A DNA stretch of 64,000 bases from Mobula birostris. Its lineage: Eukaryota. This document shows positions 7,217 through 30,538 of the stretch, piece after piece. Position 1 is the stretch's first letter. Every line of letters starts with the position of its first letter. A model generated the notes under the pieces. The model ran no database searches. It saw only the letters and a program-made list of their open reading frames with translations, and was not told where the DNA came from. Both the position numbers and the translations under genes were made by a program. The stretch covers positions 34,261,130-34,325,129 of the forward strand of contig NC_092375.1 in NCBI RefSeq assembly GCF_030028105.1, given 5' to 3'.

Positions 7217-7880
7217 TATAGTGGATTCAGGTTAATTGAATCATCGGTTAATTTGGGCAGCCCCTTGTTTGGGACAATTCTTAATGAACAAAAATTAAAC
7301 AAGAAAATAGATGGGATTCTCTTTGCTCTCTTTGTTGCTAATTGGGGCAGGAGACTGTTGTCAAACAGCTTCAAATTAGTGTCAGTCATATGCACTTGCG
7401 TGGCTGTTAGACACTACACCATGCTTGGTGAGAACAGTTTTTAAATAGCATCAGTTGTGTGTGTTTGTATTAAAAAAGTGATTTTGTCACTAATAGTTGG
7501 CAAGAAACAAACAATTCAGAACTGTTTTGCTCACTACAGTTTCAAGTATTCAGGCCTAGAGATGCCAGAAACAGCCAGGAGTAAAAATGAAACAAATTCA
7601 CTACTTCAACAAGTTAGGAACAATTAAGAATTTCAAGGTATCGACAATCATCTTGAATGTTACAATGAAAATGAAGAATTGGAGGATGCAAACAAGAGAA
7701 AATCTGCAGATGCTGGAAATCCAAGCAACACACACAAAATGCTAGAGTAACTCAGCAGGCCAGGCAACATCTAGGGAAAAGTGTACAGTTGACGTTTTGG
7801 GCCGAGACTATTCAGCAGGACAGATGGAGGTTGTAATCGTTGATAGCATTGTATGAAGGCATTCTATTATCTACAGTAGG
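7217..7880 (+). mobile_element. Decayed Tigger/pogo-type DNA transposon derivative, interrupted by a PLE terminal repeat at about 7692-7822
   Basis: TA-anchored terminus tatagtggattcaggttaattg and a remnant IQNCFAH..FK transposase C-terminal motif near 7515. Confidence 0.5.
7692..7822 (-). mobile_element. PLE terminal-repeat copy with decayed hammerhead
   Basis: Minus strand reads CTGCTGA...AAAACGTC (core mutated). Imperfect TSD tggaggatgcaa/tggaggttgtaa. Confidence 0.75.
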
Positions 7881-9345
7881 CATCTTCTCTAGAGTACTGA
7901 AGAACAAGGGGTGTTCTTATTAAGAGTTTTTTTAAAAAATGAGACTTAAAAAGGGAGACATTTCCATTGTCAATCTCAATAATAAAGGATTGACTACTCA
8001 GATGAGAAGAGGAAGTGAATCTTTTGAAATGTCTATCCAAGAAGACTGTTGTATATCCAACACATAGATCTTGGAAGTTAAGAGGACTGGGAAGCTTTTA
8101 AAAAGCAACAGAAGGCAACTAAAAAAGTCATTAAGGCAAAGATAGAATGTGAAAGTAAGCTAGTTAATAATACTGAAGAGGATACCAAAAGTTTCTTCAA
8201 AAATATAAAGTGTAAAATAGAGAACGTGAGTGGACATTGGACCACTGGAAAATGATGCTGGAGAGGTAGTAATGGGACAACAAAATGGCAGGCGAACTGA
8301 ATAAGTAGTTTGCATCGGTCTTCACTGTGGAAGACATTAGCAACATTGTGGAAGTTCTAGGTGTCAGGGAGCATGAAGCATGTGAAGTTACCATAACTAG
8401 AGAGAAGGTTGTTGGGAAACTGAAAGGTCCGAAGTTAGATAAGTCACTTGGACTAGATGGTGTACACCCCAAGGTTCTGAAATAGTTCCAGAAGATCGGA
8501 AAATTGCAAATGTTACTCCACTCTTCAGAAAGGGAAAGAGGCAGAAGAAAGGAAACTATAAGCTAGTTGGTCTGAACTCAGTGTTTAGGAAGATGTTGGA
8601 GTCAATTATTAAGACTGAGGTCTGGGTACTTTGAGGCACATGATAAAGTAGACCATAGTTGGTATGGTTTCAAAGGAAAATCTTATCTGAAAAGTCTCTT
8701 GGAACTCTTCGAAGAAATAGCATTTAAAACTCCACAATGTGTTGTACCTTTGGATGCTGAAAAAGCGTTCGACCGAGTCGAATGGAAATATTTATTCAAT
8801 GTTTTAGAGAAATTTGGCTTTGGTGCTAATTTTAATAATTGGATTAAAATGATATATAAAGCCCCTATTGCTACTGTTGTCATTAACAATTGTAGGTCTC
8901 CTTTTTTTCAGCTTTCACGGGGGACGAGGCAAGGCTGTCCATTAAGTCCTTTGTTGTTTAATTTAATATTAGAACCCCTTGCTCTTCGTGAGGCTAAAAA
9001 TATCCATGGGATTTTTGTGAATGAGACCATGCATAAGATCTCTCTTTATGCTAATGATTTATTGGTTTATATATCTAACCCTGACGAATCCATTCCTGCC
9101 TTGCTAAAATTATTTAATGAATTTGGAGGTTTTTCAGGATATAAAACAAATTTTAGTAAAAGTGAATTGTTTCCTTTAAATGATTCTGTCTCTATATATG
9201 ATAATACTCCTTTTAAAGTTACAGATTCTTTTAGATATCTAAGTATTATATTTACCAAAAAAAATAAAGATCTTTATAAAGCCAATTTTGTTCCTTTAGT
9301 AGATTCTATGAAGTATTTACTTAGTAGATGGAGTCCACTTACATT

Positions 9346-9480
9346 CTAGTCCTGACGAAGGGTCTCGGCCTGAAACGTCGACTGCATCTCTTCCTACAGA
9401 TGCTGCCTGGCCTGCTGCGTTCACCAGCAACTTTGATGTGTGTTGCTTGAATTTCCAGCATCTGCAGAATTCCTGTTGTT
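9346..9480 (+). mobile_element. 135-bp PLE-derived mini-insertion (hammerhead plus 3' tail)
   Basis: Perfect 12-bp TSD tccacttacatt (9334-9345 and 9481-9492). Removing it restores the L1 frame SRWSPLTFSLVGRTHIVK. Confidence 0.92.
9348..9383 (+). ncRNA. Minimal type I hammerhead ribozyme (PLE type), intact
   Basis: AGTC-CTGACGA-AGGGTCTCGGCCT-GAAA-CG-TC^GACT. Stem I is AGTC/GACT, both core boxes are intact, stem III is the palindrome ACGT, and the GUC site predicts cleavage after 9379. Confidence 0.85.
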
Positions 9481-12400
9481 TCCACTTACATTTTCACTTG
9501 TTGGTCGTACTCATATAGTTAAAACGATGATTTTACCGAAATTTTTATATTTATTTCAGAATATTCCTGTTTTTTTGACTAGGAAGTTTTTTGATCGGAT
9601 TGATTCTATTATTTTATCTTTTATTTGGAATAATAAAAGACCAAGAATTAGTAAATGTCACTTACAAAAATTGAAAAAGGATGGAGGTCTTGCTTTGCCT
9701 AATCTAAGAATGTATTATTGGGCTGTTAATGTGCGATATATGTCTTTTTGGTTATACTGGGTTGATAACAGTGATCGGCCAATTTGGGTAGACCTGGAAC
9801 TGGAAGTTGTAAAACAGTTTTATTTAACCTCGTTATTGGGAGCTCCTTTACCTATGCAATTAGTTAAAGTTGTTAATCTAAACCTATATCCTGTGATTAA
9901 GTATTCTTTACAAATTTGGCTCCAATTCCGCAATTTTTCTAATCTTAAAAAATTTAAACTTTGTAGTTTAATTTACCGAAATTACTTTTTTTAAGCCTTC
10001 TTTGAGTGATCCAATTTTCTTACTTTGGAAAAATAAAGCTATTAATTCTTTTTTGGATTTATTTAAAGGAGATAGATTGATGTCTTTTGAACAATTAATT
10101 GATAAATATTCTCTTTCATACACTCTCTGCAGTACCTTCAAGTTAGACATTTTTTACAAAAATATTTAAATAATTTCCCTTACATATTGGAGGCTGACCT
10201 GTTAGATACTATTATGAGTATGAATCCTTTGATTAAGGGTTCTATTGGAAGAATTTATAATTTATTATTACAATGGGATAAGCGTCCTTTATCTAAGATT
10301 AAACAGGATTGGGAAAAGGAACTTAATTTGACTTTTACGACGGAGGATTGAATGCGGATATTGAAGATGGTTAACTCTTCTTCAATTTGTGCTAGCCATT
10401 CATTGATTCAATTTAAAATTGTACATCGTTATCATTTGACAAAGGAGAGACTTTCTAAAATCTTTCCTTATGTTGATAGTCATTGTGATAGATGTAAAAC
10501 TGAGATAGCTACACTGACACATATGTTTTGGTCTTGTTCTATATTGGAACAGTTCTGGAAGTCAGTTTTTTCCACAATTTCTAAAACACTTAAAATTAAT
10601 TTACAACCTAATAAATTAACTGTGCCTTTTGGAATAGTTCCTCAAAATATTCATGGTATTTCTGTGTCTGACCAACATGTTATTGCATTTGTTACATTGA
10701 TAGCTAAGAGGGCCATTTTGTTGAAGTGGAAGGATACATCAGCTCCCACTTTGTCACACTGGTTCTCTCAAGTGATGCTATGTCTTAGATTGGAGAAAAT
10801 TAGAAGTCAAACCTTTGAATCTTTGATTTTGAGAAAAGATGAGGTTCATTTGCTCGTTATTATCATTTGAGTTAATTGATATAATTTTTCCACGATCTAA
10901 TTGTAAATTTTTTCGTATATTTTCTTTTCTTGCTGGTGGTTTGATGTTTATTTTTAGAAGTTTTTTGTATGATGCATGACTCCGGGGTTGTACACCTAAT
11001 GGGTTCTTATTTTTCCTCACTTTTCTGCTTAGTAGGTTTTCGTTGTTATCACAAAATTTTTTTTCAATCTTTGTGATAGTCTTTTTTGAGACATTGTAAG
11101 TGTTGTTACTTCAATGTACTCATGTTATTTTTCCTGTATAATATAACAATAAAAATATTTGAAAAGAAAAGAAGACATAGCAAGCAGGATATAGACAAAG
11201 GAGAATCAGCTGATGTTGTGTACTTGAATTTTCAGAAGGCCTTTGACAGGGTGTCACACATGAGGCTGCTTAACAAGCTACGAGCCCATGCTATTACAGG
11301 AAAGATTCTAGCATGGATAAAGCAGTGGCTGATTGGCAGGGGGCAAAGAGTGAGAATAAAGGGAGCCTTTTCTGGTTGGCTGCTAGTGACTGGTGGTGTA
11401 CCACAAAGGTCTGTGTTGGGACCAATTCTTTCTACGTTAGAATTTCAATGATGTGGATGATGTAATTGTTGCAAAGTTTGCAGATGATGTAGATGGTGCA
11501 AGGTTAGGTAGCTTTGAGGAAGTAGAGAAGCTACAGAGGACAGACAGATTGGGAGAATGGGCAAAGAAATGTCAGATGGAATACAGTGTCAGAAAGTGTA
11601 TGGTTATGCACTTTGGTAGAAGAAATGAAAGAATTGACTATTTTCTAAATGGAGGGAAAATACGAAAAAAGCTGAGGTGCAAAGGGACTTGAGAGTCCTT
11701 TTGCAGGATTCCCTAAAGGTTAATTTGCAGGTTGAGTCTGTGGTGAGGAAGGCAAATGTGATGTTAGCATTCATTTTAACAGAACTAGAATATAAAAACA
11801 ATGTTGTGATGTTGAGACTTCATAAAGCACTGGTGAGGTCTCACTTGGATTATTGTGAGCAGGTCTGGGCCCCTCATCTTAGAGAGGATGTGCTGAAACT
11901 GGACAGGGTTCAAAGGAGGAGCAAAAAATGATTCCAGAATTGAACAGCTTGTCATATGAAGAGCATTTGATGGCTCTGGGCCTGTATTCACTAGAATTCA
12001 AAAGAATGAGGCATGGCTCATTGAAACCTATCAAATGGTGAAAGTCCTACATAGAGTGAATGTGAAGACAATGTTTCCTGAACTGGGAGAGTCTAAAACC
12101 AGAAGACACTGTCTCAGAATAGAGGGGCTTCCTTTTATAACAAAGATGAGGAGGAATTTCTTTAGCCAGAGTGGTGAATCTGTGGAATTCTTTACCACAG
12201 GCAGCTGTGGAGGCCAAGCCTTTATGTATATTTAAGGCAGAGGTTGACAGATTCTTGATTGGTCAGGGCATGAAGGACTATGAGGAGAAGGCAAGAGATT
12301 AGGGCTGAGAGAAAAAATGGATCAGCCATGATGAAATGGCAGAGCAGACTCAATGGGCCAAATAGCCTAATTCTGCTCCTATATCTTATGGTCTTATCAA

Positions 12401-12616: not shown

Positions 12617-14349
12617 CTAGGGACAGGAATAGATCGTGCATGAATCAATATAACCAAAATAAGAACAAAAAGTTATATGAACTATTTTCCTTAACTAGAT
12701 GTTATGAGACTCTGTTTGAACCTTCACAACTACTCAAACACATTATAGTGAAACTACACATGAAATCAGTTTTTCCTTATTTATCAATACCATTAATAAA
12801 TTTGAACGTCATTCAGATTAAGTTTCTGTCTTTCGAAGAAGTGTCTCTTTTATTTCCAAGTGCAGTCCACCACATTCCCTTGCTAACCACTCAATTCCTT
12901 TATAAATATTTCAGTTCAATTTGATGAGTGCATAAATAACCTCACTTTCCCTTCCATTTTAACTCTTTTAATTTCCTTCTATTAATCATGGCTATTCTAA
13001 TAATGATCCATGCTTATGCTATTCTATCAATAGTCTGAATGATACAAAAGTATCACCAGTATGTACCACCAGGCACAATATTTGAGCCTAAAGATATGGT
13101 CTGAGCAACTGAGCACTGTGAAAATACTCAGAGAATTAGTTACCATCAACATGATTTTCCAAAGAAGTTTACTCAAATGAAAAATAAGTGACCTGAAACA
13201 CTAACTCTATTCTTCAAATGCTGCCCCACAAGTCAGGTATTTCTGGAATTTTCTATTTTTATTTCTGATATCCAGTATTTACAGTAATTTACTTTTGTAT
13301 TTTAAAGGATATGCCAATCCTGATGAATCTATGTGAAACTTTGCAACAAGGTGACAAAAAGAGCATCTACTGAAATTTTAATACGGAGTCACTAATGTCT
13401 CAGTGACATTATATGATGCTAGCTCAGACGAAGTTAATGGAATTGATGGTGAATTACTGTTCTAATTGTGAAAATGTCTGAGCAGCAAGAGGTAGTGAGC
13501 ACGGATACTGGGGCAAATGCTCCAAGATCTACCCAACTGATCCCCCACAAGGACTCAGGTTTAATTAGTCACCCAAAAAATCTACTGACTAAAAAAAATC
13601 ACACAACTATATATATTTTTACATAGTTTGTAAGAAAATCAACAACACTGCCTGAATAATTTCATCTAAAATATTCCAACTTGGTAAGCATAGCCCAACT
13701 TAAGAGTTAAGAATTTACACTGTCATTTCAGAATCAGGTTGGATAATAAGGTTGTTATTACAAAAACACGTTATTCCAAATTAAATTTGCAACAATTTTT
13801 TCAATTTCTATATTTTACCTTTCTTACAAGAATCACCTTCACAAACTATGAACTGTTTGATATTCAAGTGCTCTAAGGGGACAGCCTAATACTGACCATT
13901 AACAGACAGACTGGAGATAAGTGCATTCTGAAAGTAAAACAACAATCTGAGCCTGACTTTGAACTTTAACATTTCATAACGCTGCACTGTTCACATGCTT
14001 TAGATTAAGTACACTCCACTTAATTAAGAGAATGTTAGAATTAAATGAAAATAGGATGAACGAAAAGACTGACAGTATACCTCCATGAAATTTAGTTTGG
14101 CCCTCAATGCAATCCATTAGTAGGTTTAATGCTCATAGTATCTCATACTAAACTGATACTCTTCTGCCTCAGTTATATACATCACAGCTTATACTCCATT
14201 TGAATCTGAACGAGTTAAGCTGTTTAGTAGGGAAAACTCAATGTAAGAAAAGTGCCATCCCATTTACTTGGTTTCAATAAATTATTGTCATTAACTACTC
14301 CATCCTCCCAACACATTAAAAACAAAACAAAAAAGAAGTCATTACTTAC

Positions 14350-14588
14350 ATTTGTTCCTAACTTGATGGATATTGGGGCTGGCTTCTTTAATGTTGTATT
14401 TCCTATCGAAAATCCAACTTTTGTGACTTTTGCAGGCGTGGGTTTGTTGTTTGTATCCCCAACAGCTGAGTCGTCTTGATCTCTTTCGTTAGCTGCTCTT
14501 TTCTCTGCATTTCGACTTGAACTTTCTCCTTCATTACTGGAAGAAACAGTCTTAGTTTTCATAGTTTTCTCTGCTTTCTCTTCTGGTC
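14350..14588 (-). CDS. PCNP: PCNP coding exon 2
   Basis: 239 bp, ccaccAG/.../GTAAGT. Encodes (G)[30 protein letters not shown]...GFSIG...ISIKLGTN. Confidence 0.95.
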
Positions 14589-16229
14589 CTGGTGGAGTCG
14601 AAACAACTTACCAAGATGAGATACTTTTATCGAGCACTGTGACGATTGCAGCAACCTCAATAAGCATTTAAGGAGCTTCTGTGGGTGTGCACTGCCTGAA
14701 CCAGCAGTCTCTTCCACTGTTTGTCAGATAGAGTAGATGCAGGCTCTAGAAAACCATTTCATAGATGGATAGACTCTAAATTTCAGTTTCAGGGCAGGAT
14801 TAATCCAGTGCTCCTGTTTCTTGGACCCCAGAAAAAATTCACAGGACCAAAACAGTACAGATTTTAGTAGACCAAAAGGTCCACAGTGAATACACATTCA
14901 CCAAGTACTTTTCAAACTGTAGATTTTCTGGTGTTACGTTTTAAACGACGTTGGGAATATAACATTTTAGCCACATTGGCAACATCCTAAAATAACTGGT
15001 GGCCAAAATCAATACCAGGATAAACAGATTCACAGTTCAAGAAATTTCATTTTCTACATTTGTGAATCTTGGTCTTACTTTTCATTGTCCAGCAGCATAC
15101 ATATGTTCCAGTGATGTTAAATTTAAAAATAGACAATTTTTCAAATCTGACAATTAGTTTGAAATCTGTCTGATTAAATTAAAGTTAATTCTGGAGACAA
15201 AATTCAGAATAGCAAATGACAACCAAAAACTTAAGGTTGAATAGTTTTACATATGTTGATTTACTATAGAATAAAATTTTGTTTTGAGAAGTAATTATTT
15301 TCAATTCAGAATTGACAGTTCTAAAACAAATTCCTCCTAATTTTCAACAAAGAACTTGCATAATAGTTTTCAGATCCAAATGATTTTAACATATGTACTA
15401 GCTAAGAGCCTTATTTCTATTTGCCCCCAATATCACATTTTTCTTAATAAATATTCTCTGCATTCCAACAAAACAGCCCAGGACCTAGCAAGCATTCCTT
15501 TCATTGGCCTGTTAATTAGAAGATAGAAATGGATACAACATTGGGCTGTTATATACAAAACATACACAATATGAAAAGTCCACTTTGACTCCCTAATCGC
15601 TATCGCTCTCCATTTATACTATACAAAACTTTATTTCTGCAAGGTCATTACTATAAGAATTAAATAATTCTTAAAAGAAGTGATTTATTCCACAACAAAT
15701 TAGGGTAAGTTTTAAACACAGCACAATCAATGCATTATTTGAAAGAAAACTATATTCAAATTTGCACACCAAAAATATACTAGAGGAAATGCAAAACACT
15801 AACTTTCAAAAATACTCCGACCAGGCAGCAACTAATCAACCACCATTCATCAGAACTGGAAGCATGAATCAGTCCTGATTTTAAAAAAGTCGCTGATTTG
15901 TAAGATTAATCTCAACACAAACAGTGTACAGTCTGTTGAGTATTCATAGCATTTTCTTTTCCTATGCTGAAAATAGAATGGAATCATCTCATGTCAGAGC
16001 ATGGTTAAACAAATCTAAGTTGCAAGCTACCTGTTACTGTAATGTGAATTTACATTTACTTGGCAAGTTGCTGCAATGCCCCCTATGATACTGTTGTATT
16101 CAATTTCGTACACAGCAGCAACGAGGATACTTCATTAATTAAAACTAGTACTGATTTGGTCCTACTGGATTTTTTGTGTTGCCAAAATGTGAATCACACA
16201 ATGCAAAATAGGCGAAGTTGGTATTAGTA

Positions 16230-17790
16230 AAAAATAATCTACTAGAAAAGATAATGAGCCAGAGTACTGATAACCTCAAAACTTGAAGATTTTCATCGCA
16301 GAGTTTTGAAACAGTTGACTATAAAGATGATAATGGCTCTGAATATGTTACAGAATTCTATAGATCTTAACCTCTGCAGATAGCAGAGTGGCAAATGGGA
16401 CACCACCATTTAAGAAATGGAGAGACAAATTGGAACTTTCCAAACTGTTACCCTGATAACAATGGTGGGGAAAATGCTGGAATCTATTAATGCTTGGAAA
16501 ATATCAGCACTATTGATCAGTCTCAACATGGATTTATTAAAGAGAAATTGCATTTGACTAATGTACTGGAGGCCTTTGTGGATATATCCAGCAGAGCACA
16601 TAAGTGGGAACTAATGGATTTTCAGAAAGATCAAAGTCCCACACAGAAGCTTGATAAACAAGTTTAACATGAAGTTATGGTGATATAATGACACAGATTG
16701 AGAATTTGTAGAAAACAAGAGTGTAAAAATTAATGGATCTTTCTTGGGTTGGCAAGCTGTCAACTAGTTGGCAATGACAGAGCTCCAACTACTCACAAAT
16801 CATGTCAATGATCTGAGCCAGAAGGACCAAATGCAATATTTCCACATATACTCCAGCTACAAAACTAATCAGAATGAGAGTAACAAGGTGATCAGAAATA
16901 GATTTCAGACAGGCATTGACAGGCTGAATGGACAAAATGTGGTCAGTAGCATAAAATGTGGAAAAATGCAAGGTTAAAAAAAACGCTAAGTACTTTTTAA
17001 ATTGAAGAGTCTGAAATATTTATGTTCAAAGGGAAATGTGTGTCCTTATGCATTAGAAATCGATAGGTAATATGCAGGCACAACAATTAGGAAGGCAAAG
17101 GACTTACTGGAATTGACTTAACAAGTGATTAGAAGATTAAGAGTCCTGAAGAAGAATTTCAGCCCAAAACATTGCCTGTTCATTCCTCTTCATAAGTGTT
17201 GCCTGAGCTGCTGAGTTCTTCCAGCATTTGTGTGTATTACAGAAGAGTAACTGTGTCACACTGGAGTTATAGAAGGCCTAGAAACAGTGGAGTACTGTGT
17301 ACAATTTTAATTTCCTTTCTTAAAAATATACTATACTTGCTATAGGGTGAGCACAGTAAAGGTTTACCAGACTGGTTCCTATCATGCCAGGTCCATTATG
17401 TCAGGAGAGATTGAATAGGACAGACTTCTATTCTTCAGAGATTGGAAGACTCAGAAGTTAATTCATTGAAAAATACAAAATTCTTAAGAGGCACATCAAG
17501 ACAGACACATGGAGGGTATTTCCTAAAACTTTATGTCATTATCAGAGAATACAGCTAGATCGATTTGTATTGAACTCTTTTCACCCCAGAGTGATGAATC
17601 CTTGGAAATTTCTACCACAGAAGATCAGTCATTAGCTGAGATTGTAGCAGATTTCTGGGGAGTTAAAATATTCAAGCAATATGGGTTGGGAGAGGACTTA
17701 AAAACAGGACTGAGTTAGAAAATCAGCAATAATCTGATTGAAAGGCAGAGCAGGATTGAGTGGCCTATTGCCCTTGCCATGTTCTTAGCT
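16230..17790 (+). mobile_element. Old, heavily decayed CR1 LINE with a decayed PLE terminal repeat inserted at about 17142-17240
   Basis: Remnants of QHGF, DFQK and the CR1 3' tail. The insert AGTCCTGAAGA...AAAACATT is a decayed hammerhead. Confidence 0.65.
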
Positions 17791-18077
17791 CTTATCAAGA
17801 ACTAGTTTTACACTGTATTTTGTGGCAAATTAACATTCAATACACAAATTAAAAAAAGATTAGTACAGCCAAAAAGATGGTACCTACAAAATTATAAGCT
17901 GGACCCCTCAAGAAGTACATGGATGTAAAAAAAAAATGGAGGGTTACAGGCTACGTAGGAGGGAAGGGTTAAATAGATTGTAGACTAGGTTTGTATAGGT
18001 TGGCACAACATCATGGGCCAACCTATACAACCTGTGCTGCACTGTTATATATTCTTAACCTTGCCCAAAGTGTTAAT

Positions 18078-18273
18078 TTAAAAACGCAAACACGAGGAAT
18101 TCTGCAGATGCTGGAACTTCAAGCAACACACATAAAAGATGCTGGTAAACGCAGCAGGCCAGGCAGCATCTCTAGGAAGAGGTACAGTCGACGTCTCGGC
18201 CCGAAATGTCGACTGTACCTCTTCCTAGAGATGCTGCCTGGCCTGCTGCGTTCACCAGCAACTTTGATGTGTG
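18078..18273. mobile_element. Fold-back (inverted dimer) PLE terminal-repeat insertion
   Basis: 17-bp TSD ttgcccaaagtgttaat (18061-18077 and 18274-18290). Inverted arms of about 70 bp at 18123-18192 and 18208-18277. Confidence 0.9.
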
Positions 18274-19135
18274 TTGCCCAAAGTGTTAATGCTTTCTTTC
18301 AGCTACCTCAATTAAATAAAATAACCAATTTAAAATCAATAATGTAAAAGTTAATTCCAAATCAAGATATTAGATAGGATTGCAAGATTATAAAAGCTGC
18401 ATAATTAGGCCATATGGTCCTTTGCATCTCATCTGATTCATTAAGAACATGGCTGAAATTACAGAATAATTTAAAGTGAACTTAAACTACAATCAAATAC
18501 ATATTAAGACACATCAGGTGGCGGTATTTTACATCAAACTGACATAATAGGAGTCAGATACATTTCATTAAAAAATACAGAAAAGATATTAAATCTGCAA
18601 CTAAGCTTGCAGAAGTTATATCAAGTACAAAATTATTTTTTAAATCTGAAAGGTTGCTTTTAAACAAATGTGTCAAGTTTGATAAATTTTCACTTGAACC
18701 CCAACATTTAGGCATGAGGAACTTTATTTTGTTCGTTCACAGGATCCGCCTCCAAACTGGGTGGCCTGCTGGGGCAGTTTGAGTCAACCACGTTATTAAG
18801 GATCTAAAGTTCACAGATAGGGCTAAGGCTGGCTAACGTTAACAGAACTCCTCGCTGATGAACACAACCCCATTAAATGATTTAAAACTGGAAGGTGAGC
18901 CTTTAACGGCAACATATCAAATTAGGCGTGACGGATCTAAGGTGGGGGGGGGGGGAAGAACCGCTTTCGCCTCTCATCTCGCTGGGGGCCCGCCCCGGTC
19001 ACCCTCCCGCACTCCTCCATGCGTCCTTATGAATTTTATACACAAATGTCTTTCCTTCACTAACGCGGTAGCATGTAATGTGTAGCACTGCACTTGCTGC
19101 CGCGCTCGGTGTGGTAAAAGATTAGGAACCGGCAC

Positions 19136-26840: not shown

Positions 26841-26931
26841 AATTCAGAAACACAGATTGTGGAAAGGGGCAACACACATAAAAGTTGATGGTGAACGCAG
26901 CAGGCCAGGCAGCATCTCTAGGAAGAGGTGC

Positions 26932-26967
26932 AGTCGACGTTTCAGGCCGAGACCCTTCGTCAGGACT
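26932..26967 (-). ncRNA. Minimal type I hammerhead ribozyme, intact
   Basis: Minus strand AGTC-CTGACGA-AGGGTCTCGGCCT-GAAA-CG-TC^GACT. Confidence 0.85.
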
Positions 26968-27720
26968 AACTGAAGGAAGAGTGAGTAAGGGATTTGAAAG
27001 TTGGAGGGGGAGGGGGAGATCCAAAATGATAGGAGAAGACAGGAGGGGGAGGGATGGAGCCAAGAGCTGGACAGGTGATAGGCAAAAGGGATAAGAGAGG
27101 ATCATGGGACAGGAGGTCTGGGAAGAAAGACAAGGGTGGGGGGGGACCCAGAGGATGGGCAAGGGGTATATTCAGAGGGACAGAGGGAGAAAAAGGAGAG
27201 TGAGAGAAAGAATGTGTGTATAAAAATAAGTAACAGATGGGGTACGAGGGGGAGGTGGGGCATTAGCGGAAGTTAGAGAAGTCAATGTTCATGCCATCAG
27301 GTTGGAGGCTACCCAGACGGAATATAAGGTGTTGTTCCTCCAACCTGAGTGTGGCTTCATCTTTACAGTAGAGAAGGCCGTGGATAGACATGTCAGAATG
27401 GGAATGCGACTTCTCTAACTTCCGCTAATGCCCCACCTCCTCCTCGTACCCCATCTGTTACTTATTTTTATACACACATTCTTTCTCTCACTCTCCTTTT
27501 TCTCCCTCTGTCCCTCTGAATATACTCCTTGCCCATCCTCTGGGTCCCCCCCCCCCGTCTTTCTTCCCGGACCTCCTGTCCCATGATCCTCTCTTATCCC
27601 TTTTGCCTATCACCTGTCCAGCTCTTGGCTCCATCCCTCCCCCTTCTGTCTTCTCCTGTCATTTTGGATCTCCCCCTCCCCCTCCAACTTTCAAATCCCT
27701 TACTCACTCTTCCTTCAGTT

Positions 27721-27756
27721 AGTCCTGACGAAGGGTCTCGGCCTGAAACGTTGACT
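27721..27756 (+). ncRNA. Minimal type I hammerhead ribozyme, GUU cleavage triplet
   Basis: AGTC-CTGACGA-AGGGTCTCGGCCT-GAAA-CG-TT^GACT. Confidence 0.8.
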
Positions 27757-28687
27757 GCACCTCTTCCTAGAGATGCTGCCTGGCCTGCTGCGTTCACCAG
27801 CAACTTTTATGTGTGTTGCTTGAATTTCCAGCATCTGCAGAATTCCTGTTGTTTGTGGAAAGGGGTTTATCTCTGATACACGTCAATGAATCCGCTTGTT
27901 GCATTACATTACTGAGAAATAAGGAGCATGCCTTTGATTTTCCAAGCATTTATTGCCATGTGAGAAAATCAGTTGATCTTCTACCTAGTCATTTTCCTGC
28001 ACCATTCCCATATCCTTGATTCTATTAGCATCTAGTAATCTATCCATCTGTTTTCACAGAGTTTGATTACTGAGTATCCAGAGATAGCAAATTGCAAAGG
28101 TTCACCTTCTGCTGTGTGAAGAAATTTCTTCTTATCTTGGCCCCAAATAGCCTACACCATATTCTGAGACTGAGATCCCTCCTTGCTAGACTTCTCAACT
28201 CTATGCACAACAAGAGTCGAATTCCAGGAAGGACACGACGCCCGAGGCAGCGTTGTAATCCTTGTGTCTATCCGAGTATCCAAAACCATTAAATATGTTA
28301 AAACTTCGGATAAATTGTAAAACCGGCCTTATTTTACTTACTTGGCATGCAAATTGAATCAACTATTTTTTAGATTTATTTTATTTTTCGCAGTCCCAAT
28401 TTAAGTTCAAATGTCGAAGGAAATGAATTATAATTAAAATTATTATATGGTTTCACTTGAATTAATGAACGTGACACAACACTAAAGCCAGTGTTTTTAT
28501 GCGAGGAAATTCTTGCGAGCAAAAGTATGAAGCCAGCAAAACTGAAAGAACACCTCACGTCTGTTCATCCTGAAAATGTGTTTTTCCCCCTATGTGAAGA
28601 AAGCTCAATTCGAAAAAGTTGGGACACTTCCACAACTTGGATTTGCCAGTTTATAAAAACCATTTCTTGAAACATCCTATGAAGTTG

Positions 28688-28832
28688 TTTGCCAGTCCTG
28701 CCGAAGGGTTTCAGCTCCAAACGTCAACTGTACTCTTTTCCTAGATGCTACCTGGCTTGCTGATTTCCTCCAGCATTTTGTGTGCATTTTCCGGATATCC
28801 AGCATCTGCAGATTTTCTCTTGTTTGTGATTG
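28688..28832 (+). mobile_element. PLE mini-insertion with decayed hammerhead inside the hAT
   Basis: CAGTC-CTGCCGA-...-CAAACGTC-AACTG plus tail. Imperfect TSD tcctatgaagttg/tccataaagttg. Confidence 0.75.
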
Positions 28833-29475: not shown

Positions 29476-30538
29476 TGCCGTCATCAATGATGCCCTCACC
29501 CGCATCTCCTCCATTTCCTGCACTTTGGCCCTCATCCCATCCTCCCGCCACCACAACAGGGACAGAGTTCCCCTTGTCCTCACCTACCACCCCACCAGCC
29601 TCTGGATCTAACACATTATCCTCCGCAACTTCCGCCACCTTCAACAGGACCCCACCACTAAGCACACCTTTCCCTCTCCACCCCTCTCTGCTTTCTGCAG
29701 GGTTCGGTCCCTCTGTGACTCCCTGATCCACACGTCCCTCCTCACGGATCTCCCACCCGGCACTTATCCCTGTAAGCATAAGTGCTACACCTGTCCCTAC
29801 ACCTCCTCTCTTGCCACCATTCAGGCAACACTTCACTTGTGAGTCTGTTGCAGTCACCTATTGCATCCGGTGCTCCCGGTGTGGCCTCCTCTACATCGGT
29901 GAAACCCGACGCAGATTGGGCACCTTCGTCGAGCACCTCCACTCTGTCCGCCACAACAGACAGGATCTCCCGGTTGCCACCCACTTCAACTCTGCTTCAC
30001 ATTCCCATTCGGATAGGTCCATACATGGCCTCCTCTACTGCCATGATGAGGCTAAACTCAGGTTGGAGGAGCAACAGCTCACATATCGACTAGGTAGTCT
30101 CCAGCCCCTTGGTATGAACATAGAATTCTCCAACTTCCGGTAATTCCTTCCCCCTCCCTTCCCCTATCCCTATTTCACTCTGTCCCCTCCCCCAGCTGCC
30201 TACTACCTCCCTCATGGTTCCGCCTCCTTCTACTACCCATTGTGTTTTCCCCTATTCCTTCTTCACCTTTCCTGCCTATCACCTCCCTGCTTCCCCTCCC
30301 CCACCCCTTTATCTTTCCCCTTACTGGTTTTTCACCTGGAACCTACCAGCCTTCTCCTTCCCTCCCTCCCCCCACCTTCTTTATAGGGCCTCGGCCCCTT
30401 CCCTCTACAATCCTGACGAGGGTTTCCGGCCCGAAACATTGACTGATCGTTTCCATGGATGTTGCCCGACCTGCTGAGTTCCTCCAGCATGTTGTGAGTG
30501 TTGCTTTGACCCCAGCATCTGCAGAGTATTTTGTGTTT
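29476..30538 (+). mobile_element. 5'-truncated Penelope-like element with GIY-YIG endonuclease, 3' UTR and hammerhead
   Basis: ORF 29811-30143 FTCES..VTYCIRCSRCGLLYIGETRRRL..F.EHL...VATHFN is a PLE GIY-YIG domain. Imperfect 8-bp TSD actttttc/acattttc. Confidence 0.92.
30408..30445 (+). ncRNA. Minimal hammerhead ribozyme in the PLE 3' repeat (core intact, stems mutated)
   Basis: CAATC-CTGACGA-GGGT TTCCG GCCC-GAAA-CA-TT^GACTG. Confidence 0.7.

Follow-up and report, generated by a model that had tools for sequence, protein, structure and literature searches.

A 135-bp hammerhead-bearing insert as a 5'-truncated copy of an abundant Penelope-like element, and what the junctions of its family suggest about copying

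The insert and its surroundings

The window analyzed is a 64,000-nucleotide stretch of Mobula birostris DNA. A 135-bp insert occupies positions 9346-9480 (+), bounded by matching 12-mers at 9334-9345 and 9481-9492, which form a perfect 12-bp target-site duplication (TSD), extendable on neither side. The original prediction of a ribozyme-plus-tail insertion, starting 2 nt before stem I, ending at the family 3' end and flanked by a TSD, is confirmed. By sequence comparison, the insert is a 5'-truncated copy of a young Penelope-like element (PLE), composed of a minimal hammerhead, downstream pLTR sequence and a tail: it is the stump of a very abundant element and, by itself, an ordinary dead insertion. 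It is 97% identical to a long copy at 27720-27853, and 134 nt of it are found unchanged at 8 other genomic loci, mostly long copies. Its target is a decayed non-LTR retrotransposon ORF (8576-10870, +), which we take to be L1-like, with an RVT_1 match on 8576-9349 (E 1.8e-24) and ORF pieces on either side of the insertion. Several copies are inserted near the same region of this host family, as seen at 9291-9345 and in the flank of locus L073.

Positions within the family are numbered here from the A opening the 5' arm of stem I (position 0, window 9348), with the predicted cut between +31 and +32. The 5' end of the insert reads CT-AGTC, where the family has TT-AGTC: its templated start may be -1 plus one extra C, or -2 plus a substitution. 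The 3' end, at +132, coincides with the longer of the two family 3' ends. The 3' ends of copies fall near +98 or +133 (~+97 to +100 and ~+132 to +135), and the interval between them defines an optional tail of ~35 bp (9446-9480, +); by analogy with an Anolis PLE (PMC11167929), the two ends may correspond to two start sites of the reverse transcriptase (RT).

The minimal type I hammerhead motif (9348-9383, +), assigned by sequence, predicted fold and the descriptor given in PMC4209133, includes stem I (9348-9351/9380-9383), the core CUGACGA (9352-9358), a bulged A (9359), stem II (9360-9362/9369-9371) and GAAA (9372-9375); the cut is predicted after GUC, between 9379 and 9380. A palindromic ACGU takes the place of helix III. 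The sequence features of the minimal type are present: CUGANGA core, GAAA, helices I and II, bulged base and helix III palindrome. The motif is matched 6 times in the window and never in 100 shuffles, and is therefore not a chance match. The Rfam scan of the insert gives nothing at the gathering score and the whole 135-nt sequence folds no better than its shuffles (z -0.78); its minimum-energy fold includes stems I and II. In 59 diverged copies, stem pairs are retained in 34-54, with compensatory change almost absent. The conserved core, the short helix I, the bulged base before helix II and the helix III palindrome are shared with the minimal type I hammerheads of metazoan PLEs (PMC4209133), which likewise occur mostly as single motifs, in truncated copies; differences are the short helix II, with 3 clear pairs, and, in the young variant, a G-U instead of G10.1-C11.1.

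Three other stubs, 74-81% identical, belong to older subfamilies. They are located at 7691-7822 (-), starting at +1, at 17142-17238 (+), starting at 0 and with the short 3' end (read by eye), and at 28694-28824 (+), starting at 0; the first and the last were delimited by sequence comparison. The starts of these further units near stem I, as originally predicted, are thus borne out. Seven more copies in the window, which the prediction did not mention, extend upstream into the element. Sequence comparison also identifies a head-to-head pair of long copies of the young family (26869-27853) and a fold-back copy of the same family (18089-18277), with the turn inside the hammerhead, where both arms end, and a TSD-like flank on each side. 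A different PLE family is represented at 29727-30525 (+) by a GIY-YIG-like end and a pLTR; it is about 75% identical to the insert over hammerhead and tail, and has no Pfam match at E 0.001. A BTB and C2H2 zinc finger gene, presumably ZBTB11-like, has exons spread over 37584-59731 (-). Location of the insert within an intron of this gene was considered and rejected: the last coding piece found ends ~28 kb away.

The parent element and the ends of its copies

In a genome of 4.0 Gb, the hammerhead 36-mer is found in 21,387 exact copies and the tail 32-mer in 33,695, while a motif just beyond the tail, at the start of the ORF, has only 528. Most of the best 29 other matches to the insert extend hundreds of bases upstream, and the upstream sequence of long copies codes for an RT and a GIY-YIG domain, as well as a C-x4-C-x2-C linker. 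The parent ORF is a 900-aa frame, with a YIDD motif and an RVT_1 match at E 2.3e-5, below the Pfam curated cut-off; GIY-YIG, at residues 284-358 of the C-terminal frame, scores E 6e-4, also below the curated cut-off. The 900-aa stop-free stretch is found at L162:5051-7750, where a Pro/Ser-rich segment is duplicated ahead of the RT. The parent unit, ~3.75 kb long, is found as partial tandems: an upstream hammerhead with pLTR sequence of variable length is present in 15 of 30 ORF-start loci, where the partial tandems form pLTRs. An inverted arm is present in about 60 of 107 tail-anchored copies.

The features of an endonuclease-bearing (EN+) PLE are all found: a single-ORF RT, a C-terminal GIY-YIG, partial tandems, an inverted truncated copy and an optional tail. 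The Cys-rich linker that defines Neptune (CX2-5CxxC between RT and EN) is represented by the C-x4-C-x2-C before GIY-YIG. As judged from its sequence, the parent appears to be a young, autonomous, endonuclease-bearing PLE, Neptune-like by its linker. With Neptune-type EN+ PLEs (PMC8557442, PMC3846280) it shares the single ORF with RT, C-terminal GIY-YIG and Cys-rich linker between them, as well as heavy 5' truncation, partial tandems, an adjacent inverted truncated copy, the optional 30-40-bp tail, TSDs and a hammerhead in the pLTR. The element is therefore a further member of a class already known, and truncated PLE copies carrying a single hammerhead have been described before (PMC4209133). 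In contrast, the stem I truncation peak, the second passes halting at the first stop and the cut-site doublings, all presented below, are not described in the available text of PMC8557442 and PMC3846280.

The position of 5' ends was evaluated in a tail-anchored sample of 100 loci, most of them within the initial 8 Mb of a single contig, yielding 108 copies, 94 of them with an exact anchor and one censored at the locus edge. Among the 77 copies reaching +3, 24 end within -7..+3. Elsewhere ends are rare: none of 82 falls at +13..+28, 6 of 53 at -8..-35 and 8 of 90 at +29..+42, the predicted cut-site region, where the run-off peak at +32 is weak. The peak collects ends at a rate 9.1-fold that of the downstream flank and 17.6-fold that of the upstream flank (P 1.5e-15). 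Clustering of 5' ends at the ribozyme boundary, anticipated from four copies, is therefore supported: plotted against the consensus, the ends show a sharp peak at 0/+1 rather than a smooth distribution. The peak sits at the 5' edge of the fold, away from the cut site (+31/+32) and from the 3' edge.

Genome-wide, a block at -13..-9, kept by 31 of 32 long copies, is retained by 35,555 of 54,468 hammerhead 18-mers; a separate tally of non-consensus upstream bases gives 6,878. Both counts combined indicate upstream loss in ~26-33% of copies, or 14,000-18,000, with a few of the matches belonging to other families (8 of 90 in a fetched set). When the first 100 enriched matches were read by eye, the end was at +1 in 27 and at 0 in 22. 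Ninety such loci comprise 48 inverted junctions, 17 TSDs, 13 unresolved cases, 4 direct doublings and the 8 set aside as other families; for non-inverted junctions, 17 of 30 end at -1..+1. Inverted junctions account for over half of the peak copies (48 of 82; 14 of 24 in the tail-anchored set), and microhomology at these junctions moves the end call by several bases. In an all-against-all alignment of older copies, a set including some young ones, at least 11 of 59 ends are at the peak; the figure is a floor, since shared inverted arms lengthen alignments and peak ends are undercounted.

Full-unit passes behave differently: only 1 of 28 (0 of 15 and 1 of 13) stops at the peak, versus 24 of 77 (Fisher p 0.003; 15 of the 28 were chosen by identity), while three halt nearby, at +5 to +9. 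The idea that every RNA begins at stem I was accordingly rejected, as it would place the starts of full units there. No clear excess of a cap-like extra G is seen at target junctions, where an extra C is about equally common. An initial hint of an effect of the stem II closing pair (2 of 25 vs 17 of 53) disappeared in a larger set, where the closing base is C in 20 of 80 peak copies and 10 of 33 long ones.

A second type of junction emerged from 70 of the 528 loci carrying the ORF-start motif. In 36 of the 70, a normal copy (the first pass, which begins in the tail and stops at x1) is preceded by a further stretch, running from a position x2 through the tail into the ORF start, with a downstream reach of +173..+1317. 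ORF-start sequence is absent from the stub, so that the second stretch was not made by duplicating it; in 8 loci one TSD spans the whole double structure. Second passes continue more than 5 nt beyond x1 in one case, versus 16.3 expected on the basis of a control set of 26 long passes (including 7 scored as long despite one alignment break), and stop within 5 nt of x1 in 10 cases, versus 1.8 expected by permutation. Concordant stops are also found off the peak, at -22, -34, -43, -108 and +53 (5 versus 0.55 expected); first stops are at -1..+1 in 8 of 36 loci. Since second passes halt where the first ones halted, the stops behave like physical RNA ends. We infer from these junctions that one RNA was copied twice, x1 being either its physical end or a block fixed on that RNA.

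Upstream and downstream extents are correlated (rho 0.65, n=30), as would fit trimming from both sides or else the reach that looping back across a stiff hybrid would require. Microhomology is present at 21 of the 36 jumps, and the landing site, therefore, need not be an RNA 3' end. All four loci landing at +1252 to +1317 (L367, L379, L423, L424) have their first stop at 0, within a 6-nt overlap in L379. The pattern hints at a discrete ~1.3-kb RNA; a poly(A) signal is not seen at +1230..+1350 of the reference. Two loci 1.2 Mb apart and with different flanks, L357 and L358, feature an identical junction of +201 to -1/0, and 3' ends at +200 to +202 recur in L366, L394 and L416.

Origin of the stub

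The insert is likely to be a truncated copy of the autonomous element, produced when an internally started RT ran off the physical 5' end of an RNA at the first base of stem I. By analogy with the Anolis PLE in vitro (PMC11167929), the protein would bind RNA beyond the tail and nick the target through its GIY-YIG domain, and target-primed reverse transcription would begin at one of the two internal sites. The RT would then copy up to the RNA 5' end where, as the junctions suggest, it would usually join the target or fold back and, rarely, jump downstream on the same RNA and copy again. Joining to the target would leave a TSD of 10-18 bp, with microhomology or a few extra bases. An RNA end lying at stem I in about a third of the molecules would give the stubs.

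Different origins may be envisaged for an RNA end at 0. Pyrimidine-A steps at 0 and -4 resemble what we take to be the initiator consensus. Together with the promoter located inside the D. virilis Penelope pLTR (PMC2377424), they suggest the start site of such a promoter, a proposal nearly, if not quite, evenly balanced. The D. virilis start site, on the other hand, is found ~120 nt upstream of, rather than at, the intron end marking helix I (PMC2377424, PMC4209133), which counts against an RNA end at stem I. A 5'-3' nuclease stopping at the folded or protein-bound ribozyme is a candidate held more tentatively, suggested by the end being the first paired base and by the absence of a cap-like G at target junctions. 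That 0 is instead a fixed block on a longer RNA is improbable, though a block that stays in place on a single RNA molecule would look like a physical end; other causes are very improbable. Contigs from presumed RNA runs, in which neither starts nor strand are readable, show joints landing at 0 with unknown intervening sequence; we take these joints to be other subfamilies, and not splicing.

The original prediction offered two readings of the clustered ends, RT stalling at the folded ribozyme or a discrete retrozyme-like unit, as opposed to random truncation. The non-random peak stands; stalling is disfavoured and the discrete unit is not supported. Stalling or release on a longer RNA, where the stop past the ribozyme might be caused by refolding, by a hairpin in the cDNA or by protein on the upstream pyrimidine tract, is unlikely. 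It would account for the lack of ends inside the fold, with small clusters on either side; branch point-, pyrimidine tract- and YAG-like sequences upstream could bind proteins, and a molecule-fixed block would halt both passes. Yet the peak is on the far, 5' side, where the fold has already been read, while a stalling RT is expected at the 3' edge. The near absence of long passes stopping at the peak, the indifference to the stem II closing base and the concordant double stops at five unrelated off-peak positions also argue against it.

Alternatively, the stub could be the copy of a spliced RNA in which stem I marks the end of an intron, as it does for D. virilis Penelope; the AG at the start of the stub would then be an exon junction. 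A branch-point-like motif, a pyrimidine tract and YAG do directly precede stem I in both young and older subfamilies, and the intron end of D. virilis Penelope maps to helix I (PMC4209133). No upstream exon of the element, however, is joined to any of the 24 and 82 peak copies: matches in direct orientation are hammerhead doublings or older target elements, and TSDs adjoin the stub with 0-12 extra bases. Moreover, the peak is at 0/+1, and not at the exon starts predicted, -2 or +2. Copying of a spliced RNA is thus very unlikely. The acceptor-like signal at -22 to -3 (e.g. window 27699-27718), conserved in diverged subfamilies, is likely a retained intron end, by analogy with D. virilis Penelope.

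The discrete unit, a non-autonomous retrozyme- or SINE-like sequence of ~135 nt, with its own lineage and mobilized in trans, is largely refuted, and we consider it even less probable. In its favour, clean TSD-flanked stubs are frequent: of 107 tail-anchored copies, 9 lack an inversion and begin within -7..+3, roughly 3,000 copies when scaled to 33,695. The short copies do not form a clade of their own, however. When 25 of them, the insert included, were compared with 53 long ones over 129 columns, distances within and between groups were equal (p 0.43), and the tree, weakly resolved, requires 22 label changes versus 21.3 after shuffling. Nearest neighbours of short copies are not enriched for short ones, two of the three closest to the insert being long, and subfamily variants are shared by both groups. 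5' ends and junctions vary from copy to copy, no tandem arrays of a 135-bp unit are present in the fetched loci, and the stub lacks the ORF-start sequence, past the RT start, that is required by the Anolis protein in vitro (PMC11167929). Animal non-LTR retrozymes (PMC7229834; bioRxiv 10.64898/2026.07.22.740005) have a type I hammerhead of PLE origin, encode no protein and feature TSDs >4 bp, as the stub does. They differ in being tandem repeats, with a complete hammerhead in each unit, that make up their own families and give circular RNAs; the stub is a single TSD-flanked monomer and, within the limits of a weakly resolved tree on 129 columns, has no lineage apart from the autonomous copies.

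Finally, random truncation, with a peak generated by microhomology or alignment artefacts at stem I, is refuted in these samples, as the original prediction had argued: stem I and the GTCGAC palindrome do provide short inverted matches, and many junctions are inverted, but the peak persists in the non-inverted copies (17 of 30), genome-wide loss of the upstream block is independent of alignment, and shifts of a few bases are too small for a 9- to 18-fold excess.

Hammerhead doublings and a possible copying cycle

A gapped search found 61 direct doublings of the hammerhead, in about 54 loci, appearing as core repeats of 24-42 nt (86 matches genome-wide). At 21 loci (by hand count, one with a 2-nt overlap) the join to position 0 is blunt, with no extra base, and at 14 of these 21 near-blunt loci the donor ends exactly at +31 (binomial p 2e-10, against 11 allowed donors). 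Seven further matches join +31 to -4 or -5, and six read GT-G before A(0) or A(-4); an extra G before either A was seen by eye in about 12 doubling junctions, several of which have other readings. In 30 fetched matches, flanks differ except for same-locus pairs, and the end of the outer unit again lies at 0 or close to it. Of the outer units in 55 doubled-hammerhead matches, only one clearly extends upstream, and five ends called at -9 look like alignment artefacts. CpG decay was ruled out as the source of the +31 join (16 matches have CA, 3 CG and 1 TG).

The +31-to-0 joins are possibly fossils of hammerhead cleavage in vivo, a reading with about as much for it as against it. Evidence for cleavage in vivo is absent from the available text of PMC4209133, whereas here 14 loci are joined exactly at the predicted cut. 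Against cleavage, the predicted site is the centre of the GTCGAC palindrome, and run-off ends at +32 form a weak peak. In the C-variant, only 2 of 8 blunt joins are at +31, and +34 is favoured (difference p 0.09).

Stubs, second passes and doublings could, tentatively, be read as a fossil record of Penelope copying kept by the genome. The main RNA would have its 5' end at the opening base of the hammerhead, and part of it would undergo cleavage in vivo by the minimal ribozyme, with release of a 32-nt 5' fragment. The RT, a relative of telomerase, would begin internally, jump from the RNA 5' end to a downstream end, on the same RNA or on a partner, and copy again. The result would be seamless if the RNA had been cut at both hammerheads. 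If this were true, a seamless jump on doubly cut RNA would explain pLTRs and more-than-unit tandems, and give the ribozyme a role. At base level, the data predict an RNA whose 5' end falls at 0, a 3' end bearing a cyclic phosphate at +31, and renewed copying once a jump has been made.

R2 RT jumps between templates at the template boundary, with extra or microhomologous bases. Group II intron RTs also jump between templates, and DRT2 and telomerase synthesize repeats (PMC12039810); these processes similarly involve a jump at the template boundary and give direct repeats, and template-jumping RTs leave extra or microhomologous bases at the jump, as seen here. Unlike programmed jumping or repeat synthesis, the jumps of this family are rare, vary and are preserved as fossils in the genome; they do not imply a programmed product. 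There are also likenesses to PAc, a Poseidon element from Anolis (PMC11167929): its tail is defined by two internal RT start sites, uncleaved RNA is its main template, and a 5'-truncated template gives a shorter product in vitro. Its ORF begins inside the ribozyme, whereas here it begins ~170 nt downstream of stem I; its authors found no RNA-seq reads ending at the cut site, and the available text reports no second pass.

The stub is ordinary, yet the junctions of its family are informative on Penelope copying. The function of PLE hammerheads is called unclear in PMC8557442 and no obvious mechanism for the formation of partial tandems was seen in PMC2377424; the family statistics bear on both. 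For the stem I peak, the second passes and the cut-site doublings no publication was found in the part of the literature covered; the genomic end maps that accompany PMC11167929 may bear on their novelty.

One 42-nt hammerhead doubling is shared by four loci (L006, L007, L022 and L023) on a single contig (C7, 186.0-186.2 Mb), near-identical (98.8-99.9%) over 1.6 kb: it is a local segmental duplication, and not four events.
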